A DNA stretch of 64,000 nucleotides from an uncultured Alphaproteobacteria bacterium (GTDB lineage Bacteria > Pseudomonadota > Alphaproteobacteria > HIMB59 > GCA-002718135), in assembly GCA_902522015.1 (NCBI GenBank), contig CABYTX010000001.1, positions 5,003 to 69,002 of the forward strand, in the 5' to 3' direction. The notes under the pieces are model-generated. The model saw only the letters and a program-made list of their open reading frames with translations, made no database searches and had not been told where the DNA came from. The translations under genes and the position numbers were made by a program. Positions 3,905 to 26,555 of the stretch are shown here, piece after piece. Every line of letters begins with the position of its first letter. The stretch's first letter is position 1.

Positions 3905-3907
3905 TTT

Positions 3908-5350
3908 ATGAGTCAAGCAATAGTAAAAAAAACGTCTGATTATTTCAAATCAAAAGGAGTTGTCTTGCCAAGTATAAGTGAACTTCAAGATCCTCAAATT
4001 ATTAATGATGATATTAAAAATTCTCTAAAAAAAATAGATAATAATGATATCAATCCTCTTAACCTCTTTAGAGTTCATTGGTTTAATAAAAGAGATCAAT
4101 CAGGTTTTGGAAATGAGCCTGAATACATTGTGCTTCCAACAGAATTCACAGGTGTAAAGGCAAAGATAATTGTAAATATGGGACGATATTTTCCCTTAAT
4201 AACAGCTCATAAAGTTTTGGCAGCTTATGGTTGTTTGCTTCCAAGAATATTAAATGGCACTTTTGATTATGAAAAACATAAAGCAGTTTGGCCTTCTACA
4301 GGAAATTATTGTAGGGGCGGAGTAGCAATATCTCGGATAATGGGTCTTAATAGTATTGCAATACTTCCTGAAGGAATGAGTAATGAGAGATTTGAATGGT
4401 TGAATAATTGGGTTGAAGATAAAAAAAATATCATAAAGACAAAAGGCACAGAAAGTAATGTTAAAGAAATTTACGATGCTTGTAATGAATTAAAAAAAGA
4501 TAATCAAAATGATATCATAAATCAATTTGATGAGTATTATAATTACAGTATTCATCGTTCTATAACGGGTCCATCTTTTGAAAAATCATTTCTTAAAGTT
4601 AAAGGTAACAGCAATTTAACTCCTAGGTTTTATGTAAGTGCTTCAGGATCAAGCGGTACTCTAGCAGCAGGAGATTATCTTAAAGATAAATTACAGACAA
4701 AGATAGCAGTTGTTGAAGCTTTAGAGTGCCCAACTTTGCTCCATGGAGGTTATGGTGAACATAATATACAAGGAATTGGTGACAAACATGTTCCCCTTAT
4801 TCATAATGTAATGAATACAGATTTTGTGGTCGATGTTTCTGATCAAGCTACCAATAATCTAAATATGATTTTTAATACTGAAATAGGAAAAAATTTTTTA
4901 ATTGAGAAAAAAAATTTTGATCCTGATTTTGTTTCTCGTCTTCCTGAGTTTGGTTTTTCAGCAATAGCAAATATATTGGCTTCAATAAAGCTAGCTAAAT
5001 ATATGGATTTAAATAGTGATGACGCAATTATAACGGTTGCTACTGATGGTGCAGATTTATATATGTCAGAATTAAACAAGACCATTGCTGATTTTAAAAA
5101 TAATTATGATGAAATAGTTTGTGCTGAATTATTTGGACGACACTTATCAGGAGTATCTACTGATAATATGCTTGAACTCTCTCAAATGGATAAGAAAAGA
5201 ATATTTAATTTAGGTTACTTTACTTGGGTAGAGCAACAAGGTGTTAGTCTTGAAGAATTTGAAAAAAGAAAAGATCAAAAATTTTGGAATTCACATTATG
5301 ATTACATGCTTTCTCTAGACAATCAGATTAAAGAATTTAATAATATGTAG
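3908..5350 (+). CDS. Atypical long PLP-dependent fold-type II enzyme (Trp-synthase beta / cysteine synthase superfamily)
   Basis: 480 aa. 'LITAHKVLAAYG' is a candidate PLP lysine resembling the TrpB 'GAHK' motif. 'SASGSSGTLAAG' is a candidate phosphate-binding loop. The protein is about 130-180 aa longer than CysK/CysM. Confidence 0.5.
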   Translation: MSQAIVKKTSDYFKSKGVVLPSISELQDPQIINDDIKNSLKKIDNNDINPLNLFRVHWFNKRDQSGFGNEPEYIVLPTEFTGVKAKIIVNMGRYFPLITAHKVLAAYGCLLPRILNGTFDYEKHKAVWPSTGNYCRGGVAISRIMGLNSIAILPEGMSNERFEWLNNWVEDKKNIIKTKGTESNVKEIYDACNELKKDNQNDIINQFDEYYNYSIHRSITGPSFEKSFLKVKGNSNLTPRFYVSASGSSGTLAAGDYLKDKLQTKIAVVEALECPTLLHGGYGEHNIQGIGDKHVPLIHNVMNTDFVVDVSDQATNNLNMIFNTEIGKNFLIEKKNFDPDFVSRLPEFGFSAIANILASIKLAKYMDLNSDDAIITVATDGADLYMSELNKTIADFKNNYDEIVCAELFGRHLSGVSTDNMLELSQMDKKRIFNLGYFTWVEQQGVSLEEFEKRKDQKFWNSHYDYMLSLDNQIKEFNNM

Positions 5351-5353
5351 ATT

Positions 5354-6508
5354 ATGAAAACTCAGTCATTACATAACCAATTAGTAGAATGGCGTCATGA
5401 TCTTCATATGCACCCTCAAATAAGTTTTGAAGAAGAATATGCTGCTGCAAAAGTGTCAACACTTCTAAAAGAGTTTGGAATAGAAGTTCATTCTGGTATT
5501 GCCAGAACTGGAGTAGTTGGAATTTTAAAAAAAGGAAATAGCTCCAAATCAATAGGTATAAGAGCTGACATGGATGCTCTTCCTATAAATGAAACTAATA
5601 ATTTTAGTTATAAGTCAAAGTTTGATAACAGAATGCATGCATGTGGACATGATGGTCACACTACAATGTTATTAGGTGCAGCAAAATATTTATCAGAAAA
5701 AGGTAACTTTAACGGCACAGTATATTTTATTTTTCAGCCTGATGAAGAGAATACTTTTGGCGCAAGAACAATGATAGATGAAGGTTTGTTTGATAAGTTT
5801 AACATTGATGAAGTTTACGCTATGCACAATATTCCTAACATGGAAATTGGAACATTTGGCACTAGAAAAGGAGCAATCACAGCAAGTGAAAATTTATTTG
5901 AAATTGAAATAAAAGCCAAAGGTGGGCATGCTGCATTACCTCATATGGGCGTTGATGCAATAACTGTTGGCTCTCAAATAGCAGTAGCACTTCAATCTAT
6001 AGTCTCTAGGAAATTAAATCCAGCAGATAATGGTATAGTTTCTATCACTGAATTTATAACCGATGGTAAAAAAAACGTTCTGCCAGGTATGGTAAAAATG
6101 ACTGGTGATGCAAGAGCTTTATCAAAAGAAACAAATGAAAAAATTGCATCAAAAATGTTGCAAATTGTTGAGGGCATTTGCAATGCACATGGTGTTAATG
6201 GCAGTGTTAAATATGAAACAACCTGTCCTGTAACTTTTAATTCAAAAAACCAAACTGAGTCTGCAACAAAAGCTGCAGTTTCATTACTTGGAAACGATAA
6301 ATGTAACGGCGATATTGAACCGCGTTTATTCTCAGAAGATTTTTCAGTGATGGCAAATGAAAAACCTGGCTGCTTTGTTTTAATGGGTAACGGTACATCA
6401 GAGCAGCATTCTAGACCTTTACATGCTGATAATTACGATTTTAATGATGAATTATTAGTCATAGGTTCTTCATATTGGACTGAATTAGTAGAACAACAAT
6501 TAAAATAA
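5354..6508 (+). CDS. M20D family amidohydrolase (hippurate hydrolase / N-acyl-L-amino acid amidohydrolase-like)
   Basis: 384 aa with the hallmark 'MHACGHDGHT' motif and family-typical length. Confidence 0.8.
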   Translation: MKTQSLHNQLVEWRHDLHMHPQISFEEEYAAAKVSTLLKEFGIEVHSGIARTGVVGILKKGNSSKSIGIRADMDALPINETNNFSYKSKFDNRMHACGHDGHTTMLLGAAKYLSEKGNFNGTVYFIFQPDEENTFGARTMIDEGLFDKFNIDEVYAMHNIPNMEIGTFGTRKGAITASENLFEIEIKAKGGHAALPHMGVDAITVGSQIAVALQSIVSRKLNPADNGIVSITEFITDGKKNVLPGMVKMTGDARALSKETNEKIASKMLQIVEGICNAHGVNGSVKYETTCPVTFNSKNQTESATKAAVSLLGNDKCNGDIEPRLFSEDFSVMANEKPGCFVLMGNGTSEQHSRPLHADNYDFNDELLVIGSSYWTELVEQQLK

Positions 6509-7666
6509 ATGTTTTCTGAAAACTTAAATAAACTTAAGAAAAAAATGTCTGAGAATAATATTGATCTCTCAATTATAACAGATGATGACTCGATATATTA
6601 TTTTACAGGATATCATGACTTTCTTCATATGGATTTTAATCGACCAACATTATTAATTGTTTCAAATGATCATAAAACTTACTTAATTACACCTCTTCTT
6701 GATGTTTTATTAGTACCAGATGATTGTCCTGTGGATGCAATTGAAACATGGAATGATGGTATTGGAAATGAATGGAGAGAATTATTGCCTCAAATTATTA
6801 ATCAACATAAAAATATTTTTATTGAAAAATTTAAAATCAATCCAATGGTTAAAAGTTTTTTAGACGAATTACTTCAAGATCATCCTGGGGATTTAACCAA
6901 ATTAATAGATAATATAAGAATGATTAAATCTAATCATGAATTGAATATAGCTCGCCATGCCGGTGAAGTTGGTATGGCTATGATGGAGGCAGCAAAAAAA
7001 ACAATTGGCCATAATGTTCCTGAGTATGAGGTTGCACTTGCACAATCACAAGCTGGAACAAGAAAAGCTGCAGATCTTTTAAAAGAATTTTATCCTGATA
7101 ATATCAATATGTCTCCAAATATTCACTTTTTACCTGTTATGACATCGGGTCATGATTTACCTAAAACTCACCATCGTGCTTCAACCAAAATTATACAAAA
7201 AGGTGATCCCGTATTTGTGTGTTATTGTGGTTCTACAAATTTTCATAGGTTTAAATTAGGTTTTGACAGAATATTTTGGGTAGAAGAAATTCAATCCGAT
7301 GAACAAATAAAAGCTTTTGAGACTGCAGTTAAATCTCAAAAAGCTGCTCTTGAAATTCTTGGCCCTGGAGTAACAGCTGAAGAAGTTCATGCTGCTTATG
7401 CAGATACTATACAGTCTGAGGGATACCCTTATCCTACATTTCGATGTGGAAGAGGTACAGGCTTTAGCTTTTTAGAGGAACCACAATTAGTAGTTGGGAA
7501 CAAAACAGTTCTTGAGCCTGGAATGGTATTTGCTGTTGATGGCGGGGCAAGTGCAAATAATTTTAGATCACAAGTTGGTGATAGTTTTATTATAACAAAA
7601 GATGGATACGAACAAATTACCCATCATTCTAAAAATATTGATGATCTAATAATTCCACATGGATGA
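6509..7666 (+). CDS. M24 family protein (creatinase / Xaa-Pro peptidase fold), metal ligands apparently not conserved
   Basis: 385 aa with a creatinase_N-like N-terminus ('DLSIITDDDSIYYFTGY') and a pita-bread C-terminal domain. The start abuts the upstream stop. Confidence 0.7.
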   Translation: MFSENLNKLKKKMSENNIDLSIITDDDSIYYFTGYHDFLHMDFNRPTLLIVSNDHKTYLITPLLDVLLVPDDCPVDAIETWNDGIGNEWRELLPQIINQHKNIFIEKFKINPMVKSFLDELLQDHPGDLTKLIDNIRMIKSNHELNIARHAGEVGMAMMEAAKKTIGHNVPEYEVALAQSQAGTRKAADLLKEFYPDNINMSPNIHFLPVMTSGHDLPKTHHRASTKIIQKGDPVFVCYCGSTNFHRFKLGFDRIFWVEEIQSDEQIKAFETAVKSQKAALEILGPGVTAEEVHAAYADTIQSEGYPYPTFRCGRGTGFSFLEEPQLVVGNKTVLEPGMVFAVDGGASANNFRSQVGDSFIITKDGYEQITHHSKNIDDLIIPHG

Positions 7667-8684
7667 AATCACAGTATTTAACACACATTGCTGTGGTGAA
7701 ATTGGGGATGTCGTAACTGGAATTAAAGGTTTGAAATTTAATTCACCTGAGGAAGCTTCTAAAAAACTTTTTTTAGATAAAAAATGGAGAAATTTTTTTT
7801 TAAATGAACCTCGAGGAGGGGTCTTTAAACATTGTAATATTATTCTAGAACCTTCAAATAAAAATGCAGATGCTGGATTTGTCATTATGGAACCAGAAGA
7901 TAATCCTCCAATGAGCGGATCAAATGCAATTTGTGTAACAACAGTCTTATTAGAAAAAAATATTCTTCAAATGAAATATCCTAAAACCATGCTTACACTT
8001 GAAGCTCCCGGTGGTTTAATAAAAGTTGTTGCTGATTGTGAAAATAAGAAAGTTAAAAGTGTCACTTTAACTAATCTTGCCTGCTTCGCATATAAAATAG
8101 ATGTAGATTTAAAGACAAAAAATTACGGCACAATTAAAGTAAGTACCGCTTTTGGAGGTGACAGTTTTTTAATTTGTAATGCTAGTGATTTTAATCTTAA
8201 AATTGAACCAAAGAATGCAAATAAATTTGTAATTGTTGCCAAAGAATTATTGAAAGAAGCAAACGCATCTATAGGATTTGAACATCCTACTATTAAAGGA
8301 TTAGATTATCTTTCCTTTTGCCAATTTATTGAACCTTTAAAAAAAAATAATCAATCATTACTTACAGGATTAAATACAGTTGTTATACGACCTGGAAAAC
8401 TTGATCGCTCACCTTGTGGTACAGGCACTTCAGCAAGATTAGCAGTAATGAGAGAAAAAAATGAAATACAAATAAATGAAGAATTTATATCAAAGTCTAT
8501 TATAGGATCTACATTTAAAGCAAGTATTGAAAAGGAAATTACAATTAATAACAAAAATTGTATTATTCCAAAAATAACAGGCAGTGCATTTATTACTGGA
8601 AAACAAAGTTTATATATCGATAAGGATGATCCTTTTCCAGAAGGTTATAGATTAAATGACACATGGCCAGATTCATTAAGTTAA
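7659..8684 (+). CDS. Proline racemase / 4-hydroxyproline epimerase superfamily protein with a Ser/Cys catalytic pair
   Basis: 341 aa. 'DRSPCGTGTSARLA' is the second catalytic motif. The first motif reads 'PPMSGSNAI' instead of 'MCGH'. 8-nt overlap with the upstream gene. Confidence 0.8.
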   Translation: MDEITVFNTHCCGEIGDVVTGIKGLKFNSPEEASKKLFLDKKWRNFFLNEPRGGVFKHCNIILEPSNKNADAGFVIMEPEDNPPMSGSNAICVTTVLLEKNILQMKYPKTMLTLEAPGGLIKVVADCENKKVKSVTLTNLACFAYKIDVDLKTKNYGTIKVSTAFGGDSFLICNASDFNLKIEPKNANKFVIVAKELLKEANASIGFEHPTIKGLDYLSFCQFIEPLKKNNQSLLTGLNTVVIRPGKLDRSPCGTGTSARLAVMREKNEIQINEEFISKSIIGSTFKASIEKEITINNKNCIIPKITGSAFITGKQSLYIDKDDPFPEGYRLNDTWPDSLS

Positions 8685-8760: not shown

Positions 8761-10026
8761 ATGACAAAATTTAATGCCTGGAATGTAATTAAAAACGGTT
8801 TAAACGGTCAGTCTTATTGGACTAGACAATGGCGTGATCCAGAACCAAAAAGTAGTTATGATGTTGTAATAATTGGAGGAGGTTTACACGGTCTTGCCAC
8901 AGCATATTATTTGGCAAAGAATCATAATATAAAAAATGTAGCTGTCTTAGAAAAAGGCTGGATTGGTGGAGGAAACGCTGGACGTAATACAACTATTGTA
9001 AGATCAAATTATATGATGCCAGGCAACCACGAATTTTATGAACATTCTTTAAAGTTATGGGAAAATTTAAGTCACGAATTAAATTATAATGTAATGTTTA
9101 GCCAACGAGCTCATGTCTCATTATTTCATAGCCCTGGTGCTAAAGATTCAGTTTCACGGATTTATAATATTATGCGACTCCATGGAACTGATGCAGAACT
9201 TTGGGATTTAAAAACTTTAAAGAAAAAAATTCCACATTTAAATTATCATAATTCTAGATTTCCAATACTTGGAGCTGCAGTTCAAAAAAGAGCAGGCAAT
9301 GCAAGACACGATGCAGTTGCATGGGGTTATGCAAGGGCTGCAGATACATTAGGTGTAGACATTCTGCAAAATTGTGAAGTTACAGGTTTTACAAGAAAGA
9401 ATGGAAATATTGAAAGTATTCAAACTTCAAGAGGAATTATAAAAGGAAAGAAAATAGGATTTGCTGTTGCAGGCAATACTTCAGTATTATGGCAAATGGC
9501 AGAATTAGGCAACCTGCCAATTGAGTCTCATAAACTACAAGCATTTGTATCTGAGGCTGTTAAGCCACTTCTAGATCAGGTTGTTGTTTACGGTGTAGGT
9601 GGTGCACATTTCTATATATCGCAATCAGATAAAGGAAGTATGGTGTTTGGTGGTGATCTTGACTGGTATAAATCATATGCTCAGAGAGGAAATCTTCCTA
9701 TGGTTCAAGATGTTGCCGAAGCCGCCATGGCAATATTTCCTTCACTTGGAAGAATAAGATTACTTCGTCATTGGGCAGGTGTTATGGACATGACAATGGA
9801 TGGATCATTTTTTATTTGTAAAACGCCAATATCTAATCTCTATTTAAATGCTGGTTGGAACTATGGGGGTTTTAAAGCAAGTCCAGCATCAGGTTGGTAT
9901 TTTGCTGACTTAATTGCAAATGAAAGCCCGCATAACTACGTGCAAAATCATAATTTAGAAAGATTTGAAAAAGGTATCAATATAGATGAACGTGGTGCAG
10001 GACCTGATCCGAAATTGCACGGTTAA
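8761..10026 (+). CDS. soxB: Sarcosine oxidase beta subunit
   Basis: 421 aa with the FAD motif 'DVVIIGGGLHGLATAYYLA'. It is followed by the canonical delta-alpha-gamma gene order. Confidence 0.9.
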   Translation: MTKFNAWNVIKNGLNGQSYWTRQWRDPEPKSSYDVVIIGGGLHGLATAYYLAKNHNIKNVAVLEKGWIGGGNAGRNTTIVRSNYMMPGNHEFYEHSLKLWENLSHELNYNVMFSQRAHVSLFHSPGAKDSVSRIYNIMRLHGTDAELWDLKTLKKKIPHLNYHNSRFPILGAAVQKRAGNARHDAVAWGYARAADTLGVDILQNCEVTGFTRKNGNIESIQTSRGIIKGKKIGFAVAGNTSVLWQMAELGNLPIESHKLQAFVSEAVKPLLDQVVVYGVGGAHFYISQSDKGSMVFGGDLDWYKSYAQRGNLPMVQDVAEAAMAIFPSLGRIRLLRHWAGVMDMTMDGSFFICKTPISNLYLNAGWNYGGFKASPASGWYFADLIANESPHNYVQNHNLERFEKGINIDERGAGPDPKLHG

Positions 10027-10311
10027 ATGATTAGAATCAATTGTCCTTATTGTGGTGAAAGAGATCATAGTGAATTTAGTTATGGAGGAGATGCAACAAT
10101 CAATTATCCTTCGTTAGATGCATCAGAGAAAGAATGGACTGAAGCTATATTTTTCAGAAAAAATATAAAAGGTTTTCAATTTGAAACATGGCATCATTCT
10201 AATGGATGTAGAATGTGGTTGGTAGTTGAACGTTCTACAGTCACTCATGAAATAAAAAGTGTCAAACCATGTCATCCGAACTTACAGAAGGTTGTAGAAA
10301 ATAATAAATGA
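10027..10311 (+). CDS. soxD: Sarcosine oxidase delta subunit
   Basis: 94 aa with 'INCPYCGERDHSEF' at the N-terminus, typical of SoxD. It abuts soxB and overlaps soxA by 4 nt. Confidence 0.85.
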   Translation: MIRINCPYCGERDHSEFSYGGDATINYPSLDASEKEWTEAIFFRKNIKGFQFETWHHSNGCRMWLVVERSTVTHEIKSVKPCHPNLQKVVENNK

Positions 10312-13265
10312 AAACAAGAAGATTAGATAATTATGGAAAAATTAATAGAGATAAAATTCTATCCTTTAGATGGGATAAAAAGAATTACAAAGGTTTTGAA
10401 GGAGATACTCTAGCATCAGCATTACTTGCAAATAATATTGGTATAGTTGGTAGAAGTTTTAAATATCATAGACCAAGAGGAATATTTTCTAGTGGAGTCG
10501 AAGAATCCGGCGCCTTAGTTACTATTGGTTCAAAAGATAGAAGAGATCCAAATGTAAGAGCAACAACACAAGAATTATATAATGGTTTGGAAGCAAGTGG
10601 TCAAAACGCATTCCCAAATGTAAATTTTGATCTAGCGGGAATAAATAATTACTTAGGTAGATTTTTTGCAGCTGGCTTTTATTATAAAACTTTTATGGGA
10701 ATACCTCCATTTGAATGGGGTAGAGGGACAGCTATATGGATGTTTTTCGAAAAGTTTATTAGAAAAGCGGCGGGAATGGGAAGTGCTTCTGAGTTACCTG
10801 ATCCAGATTCTTATGAACATGCTCATGATTTTTGTGATTTAATTGTTGTAGGATCAGGACCTGCTGGTGTTGCAGCTGCAATAGAGGCAGCAGAAAAAAA
10901 ATTAGATGTTATTTTAGTTGAGCAAGATAGTCTTGTTGGAGGAGATCAACTTGCAGAAAATAATTTTGATAACTCACGGATTAAAAATCAACTTGAAAAT
11001 CTAGGAATAAAAATAATGACTAGAACTACTGCGTTCGGACTATATGATAATTGTGTTGTTGGTTTATTAGAGAGAGTAACAGATCATATATCAGCACCAA
11101 ATGTAAACATTCCACGTCAAAGATTTTGGACTATTAGAGCAAAGCATATAATTGTTGGCGCTGGAGCAATTGAAAGACATATTGCATTTAATAATAATGA
11201 TATTCCTGGTGTAATGACTGTAAATGCATCAAAGCATTATTTGAATAGATATGGTGTATTAACAGGAAAAAGAATTGCGATAGCTACAAATAATGATTCT
11301 GTTTATGAAACAGCACAACAATTATCGGAAGCTGGAGCCAATGTAACTGTTCTTGACTCACGAACTAATCTTGAAATTGAAACAAATAAAAGTTTTGAAA
11401 TTAGAAAAGGGTATGTGCCTTATAATATTAATGGTTCAAAAAAAATTCATAGTTTAGATGTATCAAAAAGTGAAGATATAAATAAATCTGAAACTATAAA
11501 TTGTGATCAGGTTCTATTATCAGGCGGTTGGTCGCCTGCTGTACATTTGTTATCTCACAGGGGTGTAAGGCCTAAATGGGATTATAGCAATGCTTGTTTT
11601 TTACCGAGTGACTCAAAAGAAAATATTACAATGGTAGGTTCTTCTAGAGGTTTATGGAATAAAAATGATTGTATTGCTTCTGGGATAGCAGGAACTACAG
11701 ATGCGTTGAACCGTTTAGGTATTTCTAAAACAAATTATTTTTTCCCAAAACCTGGTGGATGGAAAAATCCCATACAACCACTTTATGAAGTAAAATATAA
11801 AAAATCTAGATCAAAAAGTTTTGTAGATTATCAACATGATGTAACGACAGATGACGTAAGACTCGCACATCGTGAAGGTTTCATTTCTGTAGAGCATCTT
11901 AAAAGATACACAACTTTAGGTATGGCAAACGATCAAGGAAAAATGGGAAATATCATTGGATTATCTTTAATGGCTGAACTTTTAAATAAAGAAATTCCAG
12001 AAGTTGGAACTACTGTTTTCAGACCTCCTTATACTCCTGTATCTATAGGTGCCTTAAGCGGAAGAAATGTTGGAAAACATTTTAGGCCGTTAAGAGTAAC
12101 ACCAATGCATCAATGGAATATTGATCATGGTGCAAAAATGATTGAAGTTGGATTGTATCAAAGACCTTGGTATTATCCCAAAGAAAATGAAACTTTAAGT
12201 GACTCTTATATAAGAGAAGCATCAACAGTAAGAAAAACAGTTGGAATTTGTGATATAACATCATTAGGCAAAATTGCTATTCAAGGACCAGACTCTTCCG
12301 AATTTTTAAATAGAATTTATTCGAATGGTTTTTCAAAACTACAAGTTGGAAAAGCTAGATACGGTATCATGTTGCGTGATGACGGTATTGTAATGGATGA
12401 TGGCACATCTTGGAGATTAGCAGAAAATGAATATTTTATGACGACGTCTACAGGTGAAGCTGCAAAAGTGATGTCATGGTTAGAAGAATTACTTCAAACT
12501 AGATGGACAAATCTTAATGTTAATGTGACTAGTGTTTCTGAACAATGGGCTGGCGTATCAATTGCAGGACCTAAATCTAGAGAAGTTCTCAATAATTGTG
12601 TCGATGATTCTTTGGTTGTAACTAATAATAACTTACCTTTTATGGGTGTTACTTCAACATTTCTTAAAGGTAATATTCCTTGTAGAATTGCAAGAATTAG
12701 TTTTTCTGGTGAATTAGCTTTTGAAGTTTATGTCAAATCAGATTTTGCCAATACAATGATGGACCTACTTTGGGAAAATGCAAAAAAATATGATGGATGT
12801 TTATATGGATTAGAAGCTTTAGGTGCACTTAGAGTTGAAAAAGGTCATGTAACAGCCGCTGAGCTTGATGGAAGAGTAACAATTGATGATGCAGGTTTAA
12901 GCAAAATGGCTTCTACAAAAAAATCATATATTGGAAGCGCAATGAGAAAACGAGGAGTATTAAAAAATAATGATCGAGAAATTCTAGTAGGTTTCTTTCC
13001 TACAAACTTAAAGGAAACTTTTAATGCTGGAACTATTGTCTGTGAAAAAAATAATATTAAAGGACAGGGTATCGGAAGAATTACCTCAGTTACTTATTCT
13101 CCTGAACTTGGACATTGGATTGGGTTAGGTTTTGTCAAAGGGGGTTTAGATAAATGGAAAGATACCAATTTAGTTGGGGCAGATCCTGTAAGAAATAAAC
13201 AAATGAATTTAAAAGTTGTTTCACCACATATGATTGATCCTAATGGAGAAAGAATGTATGCATAG
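10308..13265 (+). CDS. soxA: Sarcosine oxidase alpha subunit
   Basis: 985 aa with the dinucleotide motif 'DLIVVGSGPAGVAAA' and a C-terminal aminomethyltransferase (GcvT)-like region. Confidence 0.9.
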   Translation: MKTRRLDNYGKINRDKILSFRWDKKNYKGFEGDTLASALLANNIGIVGRSFKYHRPRGIFSSGVEESGALVTIGSKDRRDPNVRATTQELYNGLEASGQNAFPNVNFDLAGINNYLGRFFAAGFYYKTFMGIPPFEWGRGTAIWMFFEKFIRKAAGMGSASELPDPDSYEHAHDFCDLIVVGSGPAGVAAAIEAAEKKLDVILVEQDSLVGGDQLAENNFDNSRIKNQLENLGIKIMTRTTAFGLYDNCVVGLLERVTDHISAPNVNIPRQRFWTIRAKHIIVGAGAIERHIAFNNNDIPGVMTVNASKHYLNRYGVLTGKRIAIATNNDSVYETAQQLSEAGANVTVLDSRTNLEIETNKSFEIRKGYVPYNINGSKKIHSLDVSKSEDINKSETINCDQVLLSGGWSPAVHLLSHRGVRPKWDYSNACFLPSDSKENITMVGSSRGLWNKNDCIASGIAGTTDALNRLGISKTNYFFPKPGGWKNPIQPLYEVKYKKSRSKSFVDYQHDVTTDDVRLAHREGFISVEHLKRYTTLGMANDQGKMGNIIGLSLMAELLNKEIPEVGTTVFRPPYTPVSIGALSGRNVGKHFRPLRVTPMHQWNIDHGAKMIEVGLYQRPWYYPKENETLSDSYIREASTVRKTVGICDITSLGKIAIQGPDSSEFLNRIYSNGFSKLQVGKARYGIMLRDDGIVMDDGTSWRLAENEYFMTTSTGEAAKVMSWLEELLQTRWTNLNVNVTSVSEQWAGVSIAGPKSREVLNNCVDDSLVVTNNNLPFMGVTSTFLKGNIPCRIARISFSGELAFEVYVKSDFANTMMDLLWENAKKYDGCLYGLEALGALRVEKGHVTAAELDGRVTIDDAGLSKMASTKKSYIGSAMRKRGVLKNNDREILVGFFPTNLKETFNAGTIVCEKNNIKGQGIGRITSVTYSPELGHWIGLGFVKGGLDKWKDTNLVGADPVRNKQMNLKVVSPHMIDPNGERMYA

Positions 13266-13821
13266 ACATTCTGCACTAGAAACAATTTATAAGGTCGGAA
13301 AATATTCATCAAGTGAGAAACAATCTCTAACATTTAAAGAATTAAAAAGTTTAGAAATTTTGCAAATTGCTTGTTGGCCTGACAAAATTGATGAAATGAA
13401 TAATTTACTATCAAAAGAACTAAAAATTAAAAATATTCCTAGTTTTAATAAAGGGATAATTTTTGAAAATAAATCATTATGGAGAATGGAACCTTTGAAA
13501 TGGTGGTTATTTAATAAAGAAATTGAAATAAGTGAGCAAATCGCAACAATTTTAGACATGTCTCATGCTTTCACAGGTATTGAAATTACAGGAGATAATT
13601 CATCATTATTTTTAAATAGACATCTTCCAATTGATTTAAGAGCTAGAAAATTTCCAGATCTATCTTCTGCTAGCACAGCCATTCATCATGTCAGTGTTAA
13701 GTTATTTAAAATATCCTCTAATAATTACTGTCTATATATGCCAAGAGGTTTTGCCTTATCAATTTGGGAGATCCTTCTTGAAACAGCAGATCAGTTTGGA
13801 TATGAAGTATTAGAGAGATAA
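13258..13821 (+). CDS. soxG: Sarcosine oxidase gamma subunit
   Basis: Called from its position after soxA and its size (~187 aa). I prefer the ATG at 13258 ('MHRHSALE', 8-nt overlap with soxA) over the TTG at 13234 given in the ORF track. Start uncertain. Confidence 0.7.
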   Translation: MHRHSALETIYKVGKYSSSEKQSLTFKELKSLEILQIACWPDKIDEMNNLLSKELKIKNIPSFNKGIIFENKSLWRMEPLKWWLFNKEIEISEQIATILDMSHAFTGIEITGDNSSLFLNRHLPIDLRARKFPDLSSASTAIHHVSVKLFKISSNNYCLYMPRGFALSIWEILLETADQFGYEVLER

Positions 13822-13840: not shown

Positions 13841-15016
13841 ATGATTTTTTCACAAGAAGAATTTAATTCAAGAATTGCAAAAGTAAAACAGTCTATGAAT
13901 AAAAGAGGTGTTGATATTCTATTAACTACTGATCCCTCTAATATGAATTATCTAACTGGCTATGATGGATGGTCATTTTATGTTCCACAAGGAGTAATAA
14001 TTTCTATAGATGAAGATCAACCATTTTGGTTTGGAAGAAAGCAAGATTCGAATGGTGCAAGGATTACAACTTTTTTAAATGAAGAAAATATATTTGGTTA
14101 TCCTGAGCGACTTATTCAATCACCACCATTACATCCATATGATTACGTAGTTAAATTATTTAAAGACAAAAATTGGTCAAGTAAAAATATTGGCGTTGAA
14201 ATGGATAGCTATTATTATACTGCAGAAAATCATAGGAGATTAAAAGATAATTTAACGAATGCTAAATTTATTAATGCACATCTTCTAATTAATTGGGTAA
14301 GATATGTAAAATCTAAAAATGAAATAAAATTTATGAAAGATGCTGGCACACTTGTGAAAGCAGGAATGACAACAGCATTTGATTCAATAAAAGAAGGTGT
14401 AAAACAAAGTTTAGTTGCAGGAAAAATTCAAAATACTCTAATTGCTGGAAATGATTCAACACAAATTGGAGGAGAATATTCAGGTTTAGGTATAATACTT
14501 GCAAGTGGGAGATCAGCATCAGCATCACACTTAACTCCTAGTGATAAAAAATTTGAAAATAATGAAGGAACAATTATTGAATTAGGTGGTGTGAAACATC
14601 GTTATCACTGTGCCTTATCCAGAACTGTATATGTTGGTAAACCTGATCCAAAGATATCGGATACATTAAAAATAACAAATGAAGGTATTGAGAAAGCTTT
14701 AGAACAGACAAACCCAGGAAATAGTTGTCATAATGTTGCAGTTGCTTTTTGGTCAGTATTAGAAAAATATGGATTAGAAAAAGAATCAAGAGCTGGCTAC
14801 TCAATTGGTATTGGTTATCCTCCTGATTGGGGGGAACACACACTTAGTATCCGGAAAAATGAAAAGACACTTTTAGAACCTAATGTTACTTTTCATCTTA
14901 TGTGTGGAATGTGGATGGATACGTGGGGATTAGAACTAAGTGAGTCAGTTAGAGTAACAGAGAGAGGTTACGAGTTACTTACTCAAGTCCCAAGAGATTT
15001 GCATTTAGTAAATTAA
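13841..15016 (+). CDS. Ectoine hydrolase-like M24 protein (DoeA/EutD-like)
   Basis: 391 aa. 'DPSNMNYLTGYDGWSFYV', 'RYHCALSRT' and 'GYPPDWGEHT' match my recollection of DoeA/EutD sequences. No search run. Confidence 0.75.
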   Translation: MIFSQEEFNSRIAKVKQSMNKRGVDILLTTDPSNMNYLTGYDGWSFYVPQGVIISIDEDQPFWFGRKQDSNGARITTFLNEENIFGYPERLIQSPPLHPYDYVVKLFKDKNWSSKNIGVEMDSYYYTAENHRRLKDNLTNAKFINAHLLINWVRYVKSKNEIKFMKDAGTLVKAGMTTAFDSIKEGVKQSLVAGKIQNTLIAGNDSTQIGGEYSGLGIILASGRSASASHLTPSDKKFENNEGTIIELGGVKHRYHCALSRTVYVGKPDPKISDTLKITNEGIEKALEQTNPGNSCHNVAVAFWSVLEKYGLEKESRAGYSIGIGYPPDWGEHTLSIRKNEKTLLEPNVTFHLMCGMWMDTWGLELSESVRVTERGYELLTQVPRDLHLVN

Positions 15017-15729
15017 TCATTTGCATCACCACCTCCAGCACCTTTGGCTCTAGATTCCTCTGACTCAGGTACAAAAGTTCTAAAAGCGATCTTAGATATT
15101 TGATCCCAAGATTCTTTATCAGGATTTATGCCTTCAGATAGAAAATTATTTATATTTGATGATGGAATATTAATATCTAACTTTTGTTCATTTAAAATAT
15201 TTTTTGTAAGTAAAAGATCAAAATTTCTTTGATAATTTGTAGAGATAATATCTCTATTAATACTAATATTTTTATTTGTTATTTGTGCATCAACTTTTTT
15301 ATCTAACAAAAACTGTGAATTGATATTTTTTTTTGCATACTTATAAAGCAAAGGTATAAGGAATATGGGATCATTGCAATTTTTTATAGTTAATTTTAAA
15401 TTTTCTTTTTTATCTACTTTTGATATCAAATAATCAATTAATCCTGGCCCTATCATCAATGAAGACTTATTTTTACAATCAAACTCATCATTTATATTTG
15501 ATGGATCTATGCTAGCATTAAAAGTGTTATCTAATTCTTTAATTTTTAATGTTAATAATTTGATTCCGTCTAAACCAAGTATTTCAAGCCAAGTTGTAAT
15601 AAATGCAGCGTCTTCATCTGATCCATAAGTGAACCCTAATCCTGAAAAAGCTCGCTGTGAATTAGTGTAGACTTCATAATAAGAGTAACTCACAGATATT
15701 AATATGAATTCATTGTTGCAAAACCCCAT
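15013..15729 (-). CDS. Conserved hypothetical protein (possibly DUF3726-like), function unknown
   Basis: 238-aa ORF with no TM segment or cofactor motif seen. The N-terminal 'GLGFTYGSDEDAAFITTWLEILGLDG' and C-terminal 'ESRAKGAGGGDAND' recall DUF3726-type proteins (memory only). An in-frame GTG at 15693 would remove the 31-nt overlap with the upstream gene, so the start is uncertain. Confidence 0.6.
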   Translation of the reverse strand: MGFCNNEFILISVSYSYYEVYTNSQRAFSGLGFTYGSDEDAAFITTWLEILGLDGIKLLTLKIKELDNTFNASIDPSNINDEFDCKNKSSLMIGPGLIDYLISKVDKKENLKLTIKNCNDPIFLIPLLYKYAKKNINSQFLLDKKVDAQITNKNISINRDIISTNYQRNFDLLLTKNILNEQKLDINIPSSNINNFLSEGINPDKESWDQISKIAFRTFVPESEESRAKGAGGGDAND

Positions 15730-17363
15730 TCATCAACATTTTTATTATTTAGATCTGATAAATAAGGAGCTCCAGAAAAAAAACTTACTCTTAACCATCT
15801 ATCTGACTTAGGATCATATCGATTGGCACCAAAAAAAGATAATTTAAATCTTAACATATCAATTGGTATTGTTTTTTTATCGAGAACATTATCTTGAACT
15901 TCCGAATAAGGATAATTTTTTAAAGATTGTATTCTTTTAACAATTCCTCTGTATTCAGGATGTGTTAATAAAAATTCACAAATTAATTGATTTTCATCTA
16001 CATTTTTTATTTGCTTAAATAAGTCACTGACCATTTTTGCAATTCCTAAATTTTGCTCCAATTCACTTCCTTTCTCATTATATCTTTCACCTAGCCTAGG
16101 TTCTAACTTTGCTGCTGAAACATACCAAAATAAATAATTGCTATCTTTGTTATTAAAATCAATATCTTTTATCCAAGAATATTTATCATTGATTATTTGT
16201 TTTAAATCTCCGATAGATTGATTTCCATCAATTTCCATTATCTCCTCATCTGCCATATCCTCTGCTAACTCTTCTGATATTTGAGGATACAACTCAATTA
16301 GTTGTACTCTTGCAATTTCTTGAGTATCATTATTAAAATTTGAATCACAATAATCTAGAATATCTAACCATTTAAATTTTTGAGAAAGATCTAAGTCATT
16401 AATATAGAAAATATATTTTTTTAAATCTTCAGTAGTTAATTTATTTTTATTAATTTGGAATTCATCACTTGTGTTTACTTCCTCAAGATAATTAAGAGCT
16501 TTATTCAACAGTTTTTTATATTTTTCGAAAATTATACTATCTAACTCAATTTGAGAAATTGCTTCTAATGTATTTGTGTACTGTTTCATCCACTTATTAA
16601 TCAACTTTGGATGTTTAATGATAAAAGGTGCCATGCCTAAACCTGTTGAATTACCAATACCTAAATGTTGTTTAATTTTTCTATCTAACTTTACTGCTTT
16701 TTTTGGATTAATTTGCCTTGCAACATGCTCAACTAATTCAATACTAAATTCTCTAATTAAATAAACTGATAACATTTCTGCTCTAAAGGGTTGATTGAAA
16801 ACAGTTGTATTTTTTGTGTTAGTAAAATCTGATAATCCAAATTTACCACTACCATAAACAGCAGTAGTTCTCAGTAAATACCCAACTTTATTTATTTCGT
16901 AAATATCTGGCTGATTACCATTTGAAAGACAATCGACAACATACTGAAATAATCTTACACTTTTATTTGCTCTGCTAAGAATTAACTCATCTGGAGAATT
17001 GCGACCTGATTCTTGAAGAGGAATTGTTTTTTTTAATCTATTTAGATCTTGATCAGATAATTTACCTACATGTAACGTATAGGCTGTATCCCATTTACTA
17101 GCAATAACTCTATCACTTCTATCCTTATCATCTAGAAAAGCAGAGAAACATACAAGTGAATAAGTTTGCTTATTAATAATTATTTCATAAACAACAGTGC
17201 CGAAACCATATTTATCTAAATCAAATTTTGACTTATGTATTTCCCAGTTGTCATTGATCAATCTTCTTAACATACTTCTAGAAAAACTAAGGCGAGAAGG
17301 ATAGCGTGAACCCATTCTTGATAGTTTCATGTAGTTATCGTTTTCTCTTACTTTTTGTAACAT
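15699..17363 (-). CDS. Hypothetical protein, 554 aa, no family recognised
   Basis: Long uninterrupted ORF in a dense coding context. It looks soluble, contains the acidic stretch 'EELAEDMADEEIMEIDG', and has no Rossmann, P-loop, PLP or Cys-cluster motif that I can identify. Confidence 0.7.
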   Translation of the reverse strand: MLQKVRENDNYMKLSRMGSRYPSRLSFSRSMLRRLINDNWEIHKSKFDLDKYGFGTVVYEIIINKQTYSLVCFSAFLDDKDRSDRVIASKWDTAYTLHVGKLSDQDLNRLKKTIPLQESGRNSPDELILSRANKSVRLFQYVVDCLSNGNQPDIYEINKVGYLLRTTAVYGSGKFGLSDFTNTKNTTVFNQPFRAEMLSVYLIREFSIELVEHVARQINPKKAVKLDRKIKQHLGIGNSTGLGMAPFIIKHPKLINKWMKQYTNTLEAISQIELDSIIFEKYKKLLNKALNYLEEVNTSDEFQINKNKLTTEDLKKYIFYINDLDLSQKFKWLDILDYCDSNFNNDTQEIARVQLIELYPQISEELAEDMADEEIMEIDGNQSIGDLKQIINDKYSWIKDIDFNNKDSNYLFWYVSAAKLEPRLGERYNEKGSELEQNLGIAKMVSDLFKQIKNVDENQLICEFLLTHPEYRGIVKRIQSLKNYPYSEVQDNVLDKKTIPIDMLRFKLSFFGANRYDPKSDRWLRVSFFSGAPYLSDLNNKNVDEWGFATMNSY

Positions 17364-17417
17364 TTATTAAATATCTGTAGTTAATTTTGGTTTTTTCATT
17401 AATAGAAGTATTAATCT

Positions 17418-18404
17418 ATGTCAAAAATAAGTGAAGATATACTTCTAATTGATGGATTGGAATATTGTAACTGGAATAGGGAATTATTTGAAAATGCCCA
17501 CCAATCTGGATTAACTGCAATTCATGCGACATTAGTGTATTGGGAAAATACTGAAGAGTCTTTTGAAAAAATTAATTATTGGCACCGTCTTTTTACAGAG
17601 CATCATGATATTATTGCTCACGCAAAAACTACCGAAGATATTTTGGATGCTAAAAAAAATAATAAAGTTGCAATTATTTTTGGTTTTCAAAATTCTGCTC
17701 CTATTGCGAATGATATATTTTTAATTGAAAAATTTTTTGAAGCAGGTGTAAGATTTATGCAACTCACCTATAATAATCAAACCCCACTCGCTGGAGGATG
17801 TTTTGAACCTAAAGACTCAGGTGTTTCACGATTTGGAAAAGCTGTTATTGAAGAAATGAATAGACTTGGCATGATTGTAGATTTAAGTCATGCAGGAAAG
17901 CAAACTTGTCTTGATGCTATTGAAGTCTCAAATAAACCTGTGGCAATTTCTCATGCTAACCCAAATTTCTTTCATAAATCTAAAAGAAACATTGATACTG
18001 ATATTTTACAAAAACTTGTTAAAAAAAATGGTTTTATTGGGTTAAGTTTATATCCTTACCATCTTAAAAATTTAGGTGATTGTACCATAGAAGATTTTTG
18101 TGAAATGATTAAGGAGCTAGTAAACCTAATTGGTGAAGACAATATTGGAATAGGGTCTGATCTTTGTTTAAATTGGCCTGATGATGTAGTTATGTGGATG
18201 AGAAATGGAAAGTGGACCAAAAATATCGACTATGGAGAATCTAAAGATAAAAATCCAAAATGGCCTAAGTTACCAAGTTGGTATAAACAACCAAGTGACT
18301 TAAATAATTTTTTTTACTTAATGTGTGAAAATAATATTCCAGAAAAAGTTTCTACAAAAATAATAGGTCAGAATTGGTTTAACTTCATGAAAAATCAATT
18401 TTAG
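17418..18404 (+). CDS. M19 (renal/membrane dipeptidase) family homologue, N-terminal HxD motif substituted
   Basis: 328 aa. 'DLSHAG', 'ISHANP' and 'GIGSDL' are family-like, but 'IDGLEYCNW' stands where 'DGHxD' is expected. Confidence 0.75.
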   Translation: MSKISEDILLIDGLEYCNWNRELFENAHQSGLTAIHATLVYWENTEESFEKINYWHRLFTEHHDIIAHAKTTEDILDAKKNNKVAIIFGFQNSAPIANDIFLIEKFFEAGVRFMQLTYNNQTPLAGGCFEPKDSGVSRFGKAVIEEMNRLGMIVDLSHAGKQTCLDAIEVSNKPVAISHANPNFFHKSKRNIDTDILQKLVKKNGFIGLSLYPYHLKNLGDCTIEDFCEMIKELVNLIGEDNIGIGSDLCLNWPDDVVMWMRNGKWTKNIDYGESKDKNPKWPKLPSWYKQPSDLNNFFYLMCENNIPEKVSTKIIGQNWFNFMKNQF

Positions 18405-19264
18405 TTTCTACGACTAATAAAAGAAGCTGATAGCAAACTTATAATTACAATCGAAGCACCAATCATTTGATAAGTTTCTAAATTTTCTTTTAATAAAAAA
18501 ACAGCCCCAAGAACACCTACCACAGGTTCTAAATACAAAAATAAAGCAGTATATGATTGTCCAATCTTTGGGATAGCAATTAATTGTGATAAAAGTGCAA
18601 AGCTATAACATACCGAAGGAATTAAAATTAAAAGATAAATATTGATATCAAAATTAAAATTTAAAGAAAAAAATATTTTTAATATTACAAAGAAGAAAAA
18701 AGTATTAAAAACATTTATAAAGATATTAATTGGTATTGGTGAAATACCTTTAATAGACATTTTTTGATTTACTATAATCATACTAGTTGATCCAAGTGAG
18801 GCAAGAAAAGCTAAAAGAATACCTACTATATTTATGACTTTAAAAGATGGTCCTATAACTAAAACAATTCCTAAAAATGTAACAAAAAAGAGAATCTTTA
18901 CAGTTAATGAAATTTTTTCTTTATCGACAATAATAGAAAACAAAAGAACATATATTGGATAGAGGCAAAAAATAAGAATTGTTAAACTAACTTCAATAAA
19001 TATAACTGAAGTCAATAATCCAAGCGTTAATAATATTGAACCCGCTGAAATAGATAAAAAGTATTTTAGGTTCTTTTTAAAAATTTCTAATAGATTCTTT
19101 TGATAAGGGATAAAAGGTAATATAATTATCGAGGCAACTGCGTAACGTAAAAAAATAGTTAATGCTACAGAGGCGCCTGAATTATATGCTATTTTTGTAG
19201 TAGGGCCAATTAAGCCAAACAAAATTCCAGCAACTAAAGCAAAAATAACTCCAAATATGAACAT
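18401..19264 (-). CDS. EamA/DMT family transporter
   Basis: 287 aa, about ten hydrophobic spans, with the two-fold EamA-like organisation. Confidence 0.8.
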   Translation of the reverse strand: MFIFGVIFALVAGILFGLIGPTTKIAYNSGASVALTIFLRYAVASIIILPFIPYQKNLLEIFKKNLKYFLSISAGSILLTLGLLTSVIFIEVSLTILIFCLYPIYVLLFSIIVDKEKISLTVKILFFVTFLGIVLVIGPSFKVINIVGILLAFLASLGSTSMIIVNQKMSIKGISPIPINIFINVFNTFFFFVILKIFFSLNFNFDINIYLLILIPSVCYSFALLSQLIAIPKIGQSYTALFLYLEPVVGVLGAVFLLKENLETYQMIGASIVIISLLSASFISRRN

Positions 19265-23895: not shown

Positions 23896-25125
23896 GTGAA
23901 GAACATTGCTGTTATTGGTGCTGGCATAGTTGGTATATGTAGCGCATATTTTTTAAAAAAATCTGGATTTAATGTAACTTTAATTGACAGGGAGCAGCCT
24001 GGCTCAATGACAAGTTTTGGTCATGCTTGTACTTTTGCAGACTATGCAAATGTTCCTGTTAATTATCCTGGATTGATCTGGGATATACCATCAATGCTTT
24101 TAAGAAAAGATGGACCTTTGGCAGTTGATTTTTTTTATATTTTAAAGAACTTGCCTTGGGCAATAAGTTTTTTAAAAAACTGTAAAAAAGAAAAAGTTAA
24201 TAAAATAGCAAATTCTCTCACCAATTTATTAAAGCACTCACAAATATCTTACGATGAAATTTTTCAAGATGTAAATGTAAAAGAATATATTAGCTATGAA
24301 GAAAATCTTTATCTTTTTGATTCAAAAAAATCTTATGAAAATTATGAATACGCAAACATTATTAGAAAAAATAATAACGTTAAAGTAAGAAATTTAAAAA
24401 AAGATGAAGTTAAGGAATTGGAACCAAATTTAGCTGATGTTTATTTTGCTGGGCAAGTTTTTACTGGATCAAGACACACAACAAATCCATTAGCAATAAG
24501 TACTAAGATTTTTAAAAAATTTTTAGAACTAGGCGGTGTTTACATAAATCAAAATATAAAAAATTTAACACAGAAAGAAAAAAATATAGAATTATTTTTA
24601 GAAAATAAAAAACTTAAATTTGATAAAATAATTGTAAGTGCTGGTGCTTGGTCCAATCAAATTGCAAATATGCTTGGAGATAAATTCCCTCTTGATAACG
24701 AAAGAGGGTATCACCTTTTATTTGAAACTGAAGAGAAATTAATAAATCGTCCCGTTGCTTGGTCTGAGTCTGGATTTTACTTAATACAAATTCATGATGG
24801 TATAAGAGCTGCTGGTACAGTTGAAATAGCAGGTTTAAATAAACCACCCAATAAAAAACGTCTTGAAATGATAGAGAGACAATCAAGAAAGGTTTTGCCC
24901 CAATTAAAAGAAGTAAGATCAACATGGATGGGTAGAAGGCCTACCTTACCAGACTCATTACCTGTTATTGGAAAATCTCAGAAAAATAATAATGTCATTT
25001 ATGCATTTGGACATCAACATATTGGCTGGACTTTAGGAGCTGTTACGGGAAAAATTATTGATAGTTTATCAAAAGATCAACTGCCGAATATAGATATTAG
25101 CGCTTATTCTCCTGGCCGATTTTAA
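23896..25125 (+). CDS. FAD-dependent oxidoreductase (DAO family; DadA / PuuB-like)
   Basis: 'KNIAVIGAGIVGICSAYFL' is the dinucleotide motif at the N-terminus. The GTG at 23896 is preferred over the TTG at 23839, which would overlap the permease gene by 53 nt. Confidence 0.8.
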   Translation: MKNIAVIGAGIVGICSAYFLKKSGFNVTLIDREQPGSMTSFGHACTFADYANVPVNYPGLIWDIPSMLLRKDGPLAVDFFYILKNLPWAISFLKNCKKEKVNKIANSLTNLLKHSQISYDEIFQDVNVKEYISYEENLYLFDSKKSYENYEYANIIRKNNNVKVRNLKKDEVKELEPNLADVYFAGQVFTGSRHTTNPLAISTKIFKKFLELGGVYINQNIKNLTQKEKNIELFLENKKLKFDKIIVSAGAWSNQIANMLGDKFPLDNERGYHLLFETEEKLINRPVAWSESGFYLIQIHDGIRAAGTVEIAGLNKPPNKKRLEMIERQSRKVLPQLKEVRSTWMGRRPTLPDSLPVIGKSQKNNNVIYAFGHQHIGWTLGAVTGKIIDSLSKDQLPNIDISAYSPGRF

Positions 25126-26555
25126 CCTAAACTAATTCCAACATTTTTGACTTGAAGATAAGATTTAAGTCCATCCACTCCTTTTTCACGGCTATATCCT
25201 GATTGTTTATAACCTCCAAAAGGTGTTGCATGATTTCCAGTGAACCATTTATTTACATATACTTGACCAGCTTCTAATTTACTTGCGGTCCAAGATGCTT
25301 TTTTTAGATCTTTTGTAAAAACACCAGCACCTAAACCATACTCAGTATCATTCGCAATATCAATTGCTTCCTCTTGATCTTCATATTCAAGAACTGAGAG
25401 TACTGGACCAAAAATTTCTTCTCTGGCTACAGTCATACTTTGTTTAACATTGTTTAGAACTGTTGGTTCCATAAAATATCCTTCACGATCTAATCTTTTT
25501 CCACCATATGCTGCTTCTGCTCCTTGTTGGATTCCTGATCTTGCATAACCTTCAACTTTTTGAAGCTGATTTTCAGATATAACTGGAGTTAGATCTGTAT
25601 CTTTTTCTATACCAGGTCCAATTTTTAAAGATTTACTCATATCAATTAGCTTATCTACTAATTCATCCTTGATTGATTTATGAACTACCAATCTAGACAT
25701 CGCTGTACAAATTTGTCCTGCAACACTAAATATTCCTGAACGTGCACTTTCCAAAACTTCATTTAGATCTGCGTCAGGGTACACTATACCAGCTGACTTA
25801 CCACCTAATTCAACAACAGCAGGTATAGCTTTGTCAGCACAAGCATGAAGTATCTTTTTTCCAGTTGCGACCGAACCCGTAAAGACTACGTGATTTACAT
25901 CTTCATGAGATACAAGATAAGATCCTGCTTCATTTCCATATCCACAAATTATGTTGATTAGTCCTTCTGGTACGCCAGCATTTTGTATTGCTTTAGCAAA
26001 AATTGTTGCGGACAAAGGAGTTAATTCTGCAGTTTTTATAATTGTTGAATTTCCTGTAGCAAAAGAACATGACAGTGATCTTCCAATCATTGATAATGGA
26101 AAATTCCATGGAACAACATGTGCTGATACACCAAATGGTTCTAAAATTGTGTAATCAAAAACATTTTTTGCAACAGGTATTGTTTTACCCTCAAGTTTAT
26201 CTGTTAAGCCTGCATAATAATCAAACATATCTGCTACATCATTGAATTCTTTAATTGCTGAAGCGATATTTTTTCCATTTTCATAACAAAGAAGCTCACC
26301 ACCTTCTTTTGAAACCTTTCTTGTCTCTTCTGCAATTTTTCTCATTAGTTTCGCTCTTGAAAGTAAAGGCATATCAACAAGTACTCTGCTGTTATAAGAA
26401 TTTTTAGCTGCTTCAACCGCAAGATCAACTTCATTTTTTTTTGCACATGAAATTTCACCAATGATTTTACCATTTGAAGGATCATCAACCTTTATTGTTT
26501 CTTTGGACTCACTTTCAATCCATTTATTATTTATAAAATTCTTATATTTTTCCAT
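25122..26555 (-). CDS. NAD(P)-dependent aldehyde dehydrogenase (PuuC-like)
   Basis: 477 aa with 'VELGGKSA' and the catalytic Cys motif 'GQICTAMSR'. Confidence 0.9.
   Translation of the reverse strand: MEKYKNFINNKWIESESKETIKVDDPSNGKIIGEISCAKKNEVDLAVEAAKNSYNSRVLVDMPLLSRAKLMRKIAEETRKVSKEGGELLCYENGKNIASAIKEFNDVADMFDYYAGLTDKLEGKTIPVAKNVFDYTILEPFGVSAHVVPWNFPLSMIGRSLSCSFATGNSTIIKTAELTPLSATIFAKAIQNAGVPEGLINIICGYGNEAGSYLVSHEDVNHVVFTGSVATGKKILHACADKAIPAVVELGGKSAGIVYPDADLNEVLESARSGIFSVAGQICTAMSRLVVHKSIKDELVDKLIDMSKSLKIGPGIEKDTDLTPVISENQLQKVEGYARSGIQQGAEAAYGGKRLDREGYFMEPTVLNNVKQSMTVAREEIFGPVLSVLEYEDQEEAIDIANDTEYGLGAGVFTKDLKKASWTASKLEAGQVYVNKWFTGNHATPFGGYKQSGYSREKGVDGLKSYLQVKNVGISLG

Follow-up and report, generated by a model that had tools for sequence, protein, structure and literature searches.

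The 64,000-nt stretch of contig CABYTX010000001.1 analysed here (the window, GC content ~30%) contains three adjacent genes that belong, with a probability of roughly 90%, to the homA, homB and homC family of the homarine (N-methylpicolinate) catabolic operon homABCDER (Ferrer-González et al., Nat Microbiol, March 2026, PMC13236597). The homB-like gene (15699..17363, reverse strand) encodes a soluble protein of 554 aa that is proposed to be the catalytic subunit of a pyridinium ring-opening step. The next gene on the same strand is homA-like (15013..15693) and encodes a DUF3726 protein, the proposed partner subunit of the 554-aa protein. The homC-like gene (17418..18404, forward strand) lies across a divergent intergenic region of 54 nt (17364..17417) and encodes a 328-aa amidohydrolase of the M19 fold with a remodelled metal site, a proposed small-amide (N-formyl) hydrolase rather than a dipeptidase. 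The assignment is based on gene-for-gene architecture, gene sizes and annotations, and homarine is likely to be the substrate in the window clade as well. An earlier, sequence-only reading of the window had given the open reading frame (ORF) coordinates, the 54-nt spacer and the neighbours correctly and had placed the trio in the catabolism of nitrogenous osmolytes, which the match to the homarine operon narrows to an N-methylated osmolyte. That reading had also called the trio an undescribed enzyme system, but its architecture matches homABCDER, and the three-gene system is already known genetically, its occurrence in SAR11 included. The substrates suggested at that stage (ectoine, hydroxyectoine, creatine, sarcosine, N-acyl-diamino acids and cyclic amidines) found no support.

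The published hom loci include a five-gene form in R. pomeroyi (SPO3188-3192) and a seven-gene cluster in Cobetia (ACFLL8_11490-11520) composed of the regulator gene homR, the aldehyde dehydrogenase (ALDH)-like homD, the predicted peptidase gene homC, a glycine-betaine-type (GBT) transporter gene, homB of ~1,700 nt, homA of ~700 nt and the variable auxiliary gene homE (PMC13236597). Mutants in homB, homC, homD and homR do not grow on homarine (Cobetia, R. pomeroyi), and labelled homarine was followed, carbon and nitrogen, first into N-methylglutamate and from there into glutamate, a conversion by a sox-like N-methylglutamate dehydrogenase (NMGDH), the role that sox-annotated clusters play downstream of hom (PMC13236597). 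The homA and homB genes are adjacent in 97.7% of 11,755 genomes, and AlphaFold predicts a HomA-HomB heterodimer (PMC13236597). Reported carriers of the operon are SAR116, Rhodobacterales and SAR11, the last with 120 Pelagibacter genomes of which none has homE, and Pelagibacter homB transcripts track homarine (PMC13236597).

Loci related to the window trio agree with this operon in each gene and its size, which is the ground for the assignment. In annotated plasmid records, the gene order in Ruegeria sp. TM1040 (locus L085) and at one P. inhibens locus (L083) is a LysR gene followed by genes for an ALDH, a membrane dipeptidase, a BCCT transporter, a hypothetical protein of 567 aa, a DUF3726 protein and an Ldh protein, which is the order of the Cobetia seven-gene cluster. 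The other P. inhibens locus (L081) is a five-gene copy without BCCT and Ldh, like that of R. pomeroyi. The window itself contains adjacent genes of homA and homB size, with the 681-717 nt gene fitting homA and the 1,665-nt gene fitting homB in both size and position, together with a 'peptidase' gene 54 nt away. Genes of the sox type adjoin the trio in the window and at both seven-gene loci. The two P. inhibens operons are paralogous and lie on one plasmid (pPGA1_262 / BS107 plasmid); the five-gene copy adjoins the dimethylsulfoniopropionate demethylation genes dmdA/B/C/D, and the copy with BCCT and Ldh adjoins sox genes, a DMGDH-like flavoprotein gene and a Rieske oxygenase gene.

At least 598 loci came out of a scan of species-representative genomes, and the synteny comparison uses 80 of them. 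These loci are found in Pelagibacterales, SAR116, Rhodobacteraceae, Pseudomonas, Arenicellales, Acidimicrobiales, Chloroflexota and Campylobacterota, and the groups SAR11, SAR116, Rhodobacterales, Vibrio and Pseudomonas are the same as in the published survey (PMC13236597). At every locus with enough sequence (79/79, checked by hidden Markov model), the 554-aa gene is either directly followed by the DUF3726 gene or fused to it, and a gene for an M19 homologue without the HxD motif is present at 74/80, with four of the six misses being truncated contigs. The co-localisation seen in the window is very strongly conserved in related genomes, and the gene order identifies the trio as a real functional unit, one conserved module. 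Many members of the 554-aa family are 760-960 aa long and carry a C-terminal DUF3726 domain, and so represent both window proteins joined by nature in a single chain; these fusions agree with the published heterodimer, and the 79/79 adjacency parallels the published 97.7%. Outside the window clade, the M19-like gene, the 554-aa gene and the DUF3726 gene follow each other in that order on one strand, usually preceded by an ALDH gene and sometimes with a BCCT gene inserted.

Two other arrangements were observed among these loci. In a second SAR11 clade (Pelagibacteraceae loci L028, L045, L047, L054, L058, L064 and related loci) the trio is co-oriented and flanked by genes for a 452-aa DmdA/GcvT-like aminomethyltransferase and a second soxA-like protein, a protein that is MetF-like by eye (no NCBIfam match) and, also by eye, ProW/ProX-like betaine ABC transporter components. 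The pSymB replicon of S. meliloti 1021 (L082, 388168-407805) encodes a 30%-identical homologue of the 554-aa protein, a 251-aa protein without a Pfam match in the place held elsewhere by the DUF3726 partner, and then an M19-like protein, followed by an SBP_bac_8 ABC transporter, a class-III aminotransferase and an ALDH. Given the different gene order and wiring, the substrate in S. meliloti may differ.

The 554-aa protein showed no significant sequence match in Pfam, NCBIfam or the PDB, either as a single sequence or as a 57-sequence profile, and these searches gave no confident match to an unrelated, characterised housekeeping family. The sequence-only reading had regarded both minus-strand genes as family-less, which holds for this protein but not for its small partner. 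An exhaustive search identified 1266 family members among 50%-identity representatives, 361 of them at E<=1e-30. The family extends to Archaea, with a 31%-identical full-length homologue on a Natrinema versiforme plasmid (NZ_CP040331.1, 429530-431122). AlphaFold (AF2) modelling from the single sequence was useless (pLDDT 34), and the 57-sequence alignment was used instead, giving a confident model (pLDDT 93.8, pTM 0.93). As Foldseek found no PDB match to this model at E<=0.001, the fold appears to be new. In the alignment (27-62% identity), nine Arg residues, H251, D92, several Glu, Trp and Tyr residues and a GIGNxTGLGMAP loop are near-invariant, and the window protein retains every catalytic-looking conserved residue of the family. 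The 554-aa and DUF3726 proteins could instead be accessory and non-catalytic, acting as a regulator, chaperone or transporter accessory, with the M19-like hydrolase and unlinked enzymes carrying out the chemistry; no cofactor or catalytic motif is recognisable in either protein, and structural comparison offers no neighbour that would point to a reaction. Such a role is very improbable: an R. pomeroyi homB mutant fails to grow on homarine, many polar and charged residues are invariant across the 57 sequences, and no other gene of the operon could open the aromatic ring.

The small protein belongs to Pfam family DUF3726 (PF12525; E 4.5e-10, 39.7 bits against a gathering threshold of 22.1), and its P. 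inhibens homologue scores 103 bits to the same family. Its longest ORF (15013-15729, reverse strand) encodes 238 aa. The start is probably the GTG at 15693, the alternative that the sequence-only reading had offered, since the family consensus from the homologue alignment and the tblastn alignment both begin there; this start lies 5 nt past the TAA of the 554-aa gene and gives a protein of 226 aa. The C-terminal tail of the family is near-invariant (...VPxSExSRxxGAGAGLTDND-COOH), with A231 and G232 present in 58/58 homologues, and the Gly-rich, acidic window version (15013-15060) contains GAGGGDAND. This Gly-rich tail may be what was published as the flavin adenine dinucleotide (FAD)-binding motif of HomA. 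All motifs quoted in the sequence-only reading are present in the translations, namely EELAEDMADEEIMEIDG in the 554-aa protein, SRAKGAGGGDAND in the DUF3726 protein, and DLSHAG, ISHANP and IDGLEYCNW in the M19 homologue. A Pfam search with the window DUF3726 protein gave no Ldh_2 match at E<=1; the only match, a weak lead, is the sub-threshold one of the P. guariconensis homologue (L077; 29.4 bits against a cut-off of 38.8), and hhalign gave a probability of 9%. The possibility that DUF3726 is a truncated Ldh_2 oxidoreductase was rejected, with the similarity being sub-threshold only. No flavin reductase or monooxygenase domain was identified by Pfam or NCBIfam in the 554-aa protein, the DUF3726 protein or the 57 members of the 554-aa family.

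The homC-like protein matches Peptidase_M19 (PF01244, E 1.7e-71, 241 bits against a cut-off of 26) over profile positions 39-318 only, leaving the N-terminal 38 positions unmatched. The nearest solved structure is 2i5g, a P. aeruginosa 'amidohydrolase' (E 2e-59) and not a dipeptidase. The metal site was examined in an alignment of 56 relatives with human DPEP1, whose sequence was checked as 100% identical to 1itq, and GliJ. The binuclear zinc site of the family we take, from the 1ITQ and Sco3058 structures, to consist of H20, D22, the bridging E125, H198 and H219. In DPEP1 numbering, the window protein carries L for H20, Y for D22, Q for E125 and Y for H152, so that three of the five ligands and H152 are substituted, and it retains H198, H219, R230 and D288. 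The alignment shows no shifted HxD. The loss of HxD noticed from the sequence alone is therefore borne out and extended by two positions. The replacements are kept in 52-56 of the 56 relatives, with those of E125 and H152 being invariant, and because they are themselves conserved the active site is, judged from the alignment, re-purposed rather than decayed. The strong Peptidase_M19 match would suit a normal dipeptidase lying by chance beside an unrelated orphan pair, but this reading is almost certainly wrong: the residues that replace the zinc ligands and catalytic H152 (L, Y, Q and Y) are conserved, and the gene is linked to its partners across six or more phyla or classes, in most cases translationally coupled within one operon; the doubt that the sequence-only reading had cast on a dipeptidase is upheld. 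In two single-cell genomes the M19-like gene is in two abutting pieces (L007, 331-1315; L010, 6969-7944), which suggests a frameshift, due either to a pseudogene or to an assembly error. In Anderseniella (L021, 6929-7957), a gene for an HDAC-family (Hist_deacetyl) deacylase is directly upstream of the 554-aa homologue in the M19 position and looks like a non-homologous replacement of the M19-like gene. A deacylase role for HomC is consistent with this HDAC-family deacylase filling the HomC position.

The published study hypothesises that HomA and HomB act like the trigonelline enzyme TgnAB and describes three unidentified homarine-derived features, C7H9NO5, C6H9NO4 and C6H9NO3 (PMC13236597). 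By analogy with TgnAB, a HomB-HomA heterodimer would open the N-methylpyridinium ring at C5-C6 in step 1, so that homarine (C7H7NO2) + O2 + 2H would give C7H9NO4, an N-methyl-N-formyl enamine aldehyde. In step 2, the ALDH HomD would convert the aldehyde to C7H9NO5; the enzyme that the operon ALDH most closely resembles is 2,5-dioxovalerate / alpha-ketoglutarate-semialdehyde dehydrogenase (KGSADH), which fits the proposed aldehyde. In step 3, HomC would be an N-formyl amidohydrolase that strips the N-formyl group as formate to give C6H9NO4, or C6H9NO3 if HomC precedes the ALDH. This role is consistent with an amidohydrolase fold in which the alpha-metal site of the dipeptidases is lost and the arginine for the substrate carboxylate kept, and with the HDAC-type replacement in Anderseniella. 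In step 4, 2-(methylimino)glutarate would be reduced to N-methylglutamate (C6H11NO4), where present by HomE; the HomE-position protein is assigned by Pfam to the Ldh_2 family. This family (malate/L-lactate dehydrogenase 2) includes imine reductases. In step 5, the adjacent four-subunit Sox/Mgd-like enzyme would demethylate N-methylglutamate to glutamate. We infer steps 1 to 4, and their formula arithmetic would cover all three of the published features. As a tentative possibility only, HomB and HomA may be a ring opener of new fold without a recognisable flavin, Rieske or metal-oxygenase domain, with the window version serving a variant pathway or another substrate.

Several points weigh against the assignment to hom. 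The match is drawn from the architecture, gene sizes and annotations of loci L081, L083 and L085 and not from alignment with SPO3188-3190 or the Cobetia proteins. The published FAD-binding motifs of HomA were not reproduced, with Pfam returning DUF3726 and a sub-threshold Ldh_2; no flavin reductase gene is present among the neighbour genes sampled; and the step-by-step chemistry is a proposal. The window 554-aa protein shares no more than 38-46% identity with any other clade, the Pelagibacter HIMB1493-type, Roseobacter and Pseudomonas homologues included. Among the loci compared, the homC-like gene is divergently transcribed in the window clade only. A search of the 64-kb window found no operon-type ALDH, LysR, BCCT or Ldh gene; the best ALDH match (25125-26543) shares only 33% identity with the ALDHs linked to the operon in P. 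inhibens and TM1040. This ALDH gene (25122..26555, reverse strand), 6.7 kb from the trio, is the only one in the window that might fill the homD role, and a weak candidate for it; its product is assigned to Pfam Aldedh and, below cut-off, to a BADH-like NCBIfam family rather than a KGSADH-like one.

Some of these points, together with others, favour a reading in which the same enzyme family acts on a different substrate, another N-methylated heteroaromatic or betaine-type osmolyte such as trigonelline, that feeds the sox-type demethylase directly. The 554-aa protein is on a separate tree branch with 'MarineAlpha5' and single-cell genomes, the window locus is rearranged and has none of the ALDH, regulator, transporter and Ldh genes of the operon, the two paralogous operons on one P. 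inhibens plasmid suggest diverged specificities, and the distant S. meliloti trio is wired to other genes. A different substrate is nevertheless unlikely. Homarine use was shown both for an operon with BCCT and Ldh, in Cobetia, and for one without them, in R. pomeroyi, and Pelagibacter genomes are named as hom carriers whose homB transcripts follow homarine (PMC13236597). The window protein also keeps all catalytic-looking conserved residues of the family. The near-identical proteins found by protein search are from Pelagibacteraceae (SAR11) genomes.

The sarcosine-oxidase-family cluster next to the trio (8761..13821, forward strand) is composed of four soxBDAG-like subunit genes, lies 1.2 kb from the trio and is, by adjacency only, a candidate mgdABCD-type NMGDH. 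In NCBIfam, soxB passes its cut-off, soxA is at the cut-off and soxD and soxG are below, and TSOX and NMGDH are indistinguishable by these models. Between soxG and the DUF3726 gene is an M24/creatinase-fold gene (13841-15016, forward strand), which the sequence-only reading had called a DoeA-like hydrolase; its product is DoeA-like but scores below the DoeA equivalog cut-off (461 against 613 bits). The gene is missing at this position in relatives that are 95-97% identical (L003, L006, L007, L008). Because several near-identical relatives lack it, the M24 gene is, on this comparison, a presence/absence polymorphism and no part of the unit. On the other side of the trio is an EamA transporter gene (18401-19264, reverse strand). 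A promoter and terminator scan of the locus was uninformative, with 14 sites identified against 22 expected by chance.

Further upstream in the window, the forward-strand genes at 1213-8684 resemble a run for ectoine/hydroxyectoine catabolism in the Pfam scan. They encode an EutA-like protein of the arylmalonate-decarboxylase fold, an EutB-like pyridoxal phosphate (PLP) enzyme, an EutC-like ornithine cyclodeaminase, a second PLP-like protein, an M20 peptidase, an M24/creatinase-fold protein and a proline-racemase-family protein. A 367-aa ORF at 110-1213 (forward strand) has no Pfam match at E<=0.001, so that the two genes flagged by the sequence-only reading are not the only unplaced ones in the window. 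Two further readings of the trio were abandoned on the hom match. One was of the ectoine type, with the M19-like protein as a DoeB-like deacetylase, and had been suggested by neighbouring genes for M24, class-III aminotransferase and ALDH proteins; the other, a novel choline oxidation, had been suggested by neighbouring genes for BCCT, a BADH-like ALDH and GMC.

Homarine is among the most abundant nitrogen-containing metabolites in marine plankton, and no heterotroph is more abundant than SAR11. Assignment of this locus to homarine catabolism ties a large flux of dissolved organic nitrogen to a specific SAR11 gene set, a link that has already been published. The analysis sharpens points of enzymology, namely a ring-opening subunit whose fold has no PDB neighbour, the GAGAGLTDND tail of HomA and a 'peptidase' that lacks one metal site, a loss that recurs in the PA5396/PP_0308 gene of the dimethylglycine operon. 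The residual interest is in ring-opening chemistry on a possibly new fold and in the rearranged locus of the window clade.

In comparison with known systems, the homC-like protein shares the (beta/alpha)8 amidohydrolase fold family PF01244 and residues H198, H219, R230 and D288 with the canonical M19 enzymes (human DPEP1, 1itq; Sco3058, 3id7; GliJ, 5lx0), but it lacks the alpha-metal ligands, the bridging Glu, H152 and the first 38 profile positions. Its best structural relative is PA5396/PP_0308 of the dimethylglycine dgc operon (PDB 2i5g), which has the same loss at H20, D22, E125 and H152 and is likewise encoded in an N-methyl-amine catabolic operon beside sox genes. The partners there are DUF5943/V4R and DgcAB-EtfAB, in contrast to DUF3726 and the 554-aa protein in the window. 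The HxD-less M19 subfamily is found in dgc operons of Pseudomonas, Vibrio and Burkholderiales, and a Paraburkholderia plasmid (L084) carries a dimethylglycine operon in the order glyA, M19-like gene, DUF5943/V4R gene, dgcA, dgcB, etfAB. In P. putida, PP_0308-9 show fitness defects on quaternary amines. The idea that PA5397/PP_0309 is a DUF3726 protein, which would tie the whole trio to dimethylglycine demethylation, was rejected, as this protein is DUF5943+V4R and unrelated to the 554-aa family. By sequence comparison, only the M19-like gene is shared between the dgc and window systems.

The trigonelline pathway, for which the published homarine study cites Perchat et al. 2018, acts on N-methylnicotinate, the structural isomer of homarine, and the same mass increments would explain the homarine intermediates. 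In Acinetobacter baylyi, the trigonelline ring is reportedly opened by TgnAB before demethylation, followed by aldehyde oxidation and amide hydrolysis through TgnC and a hydrolase. In contrast to that system, no homology of HomA or HomB to two-component monooxygenases or to flavin reductases could be detected, HomB is without a PDB neighbour, and the homarine route ends in N-methylglutamate whereas the trigonelline pathway ends in methylamine and succinate semialdehyde. The closest known system is homABCDER. The window differs from it in the divergent homC, in having no operon-type homD, homR, homT or homE and in ~40% identity to the Roseobacter homologues, and shares with it the ~700-nt and ~1,700-nt gene pair, the 'peptidase' gene beside this pair, the association with sox/mgd-like genes and the presence in SAR11.

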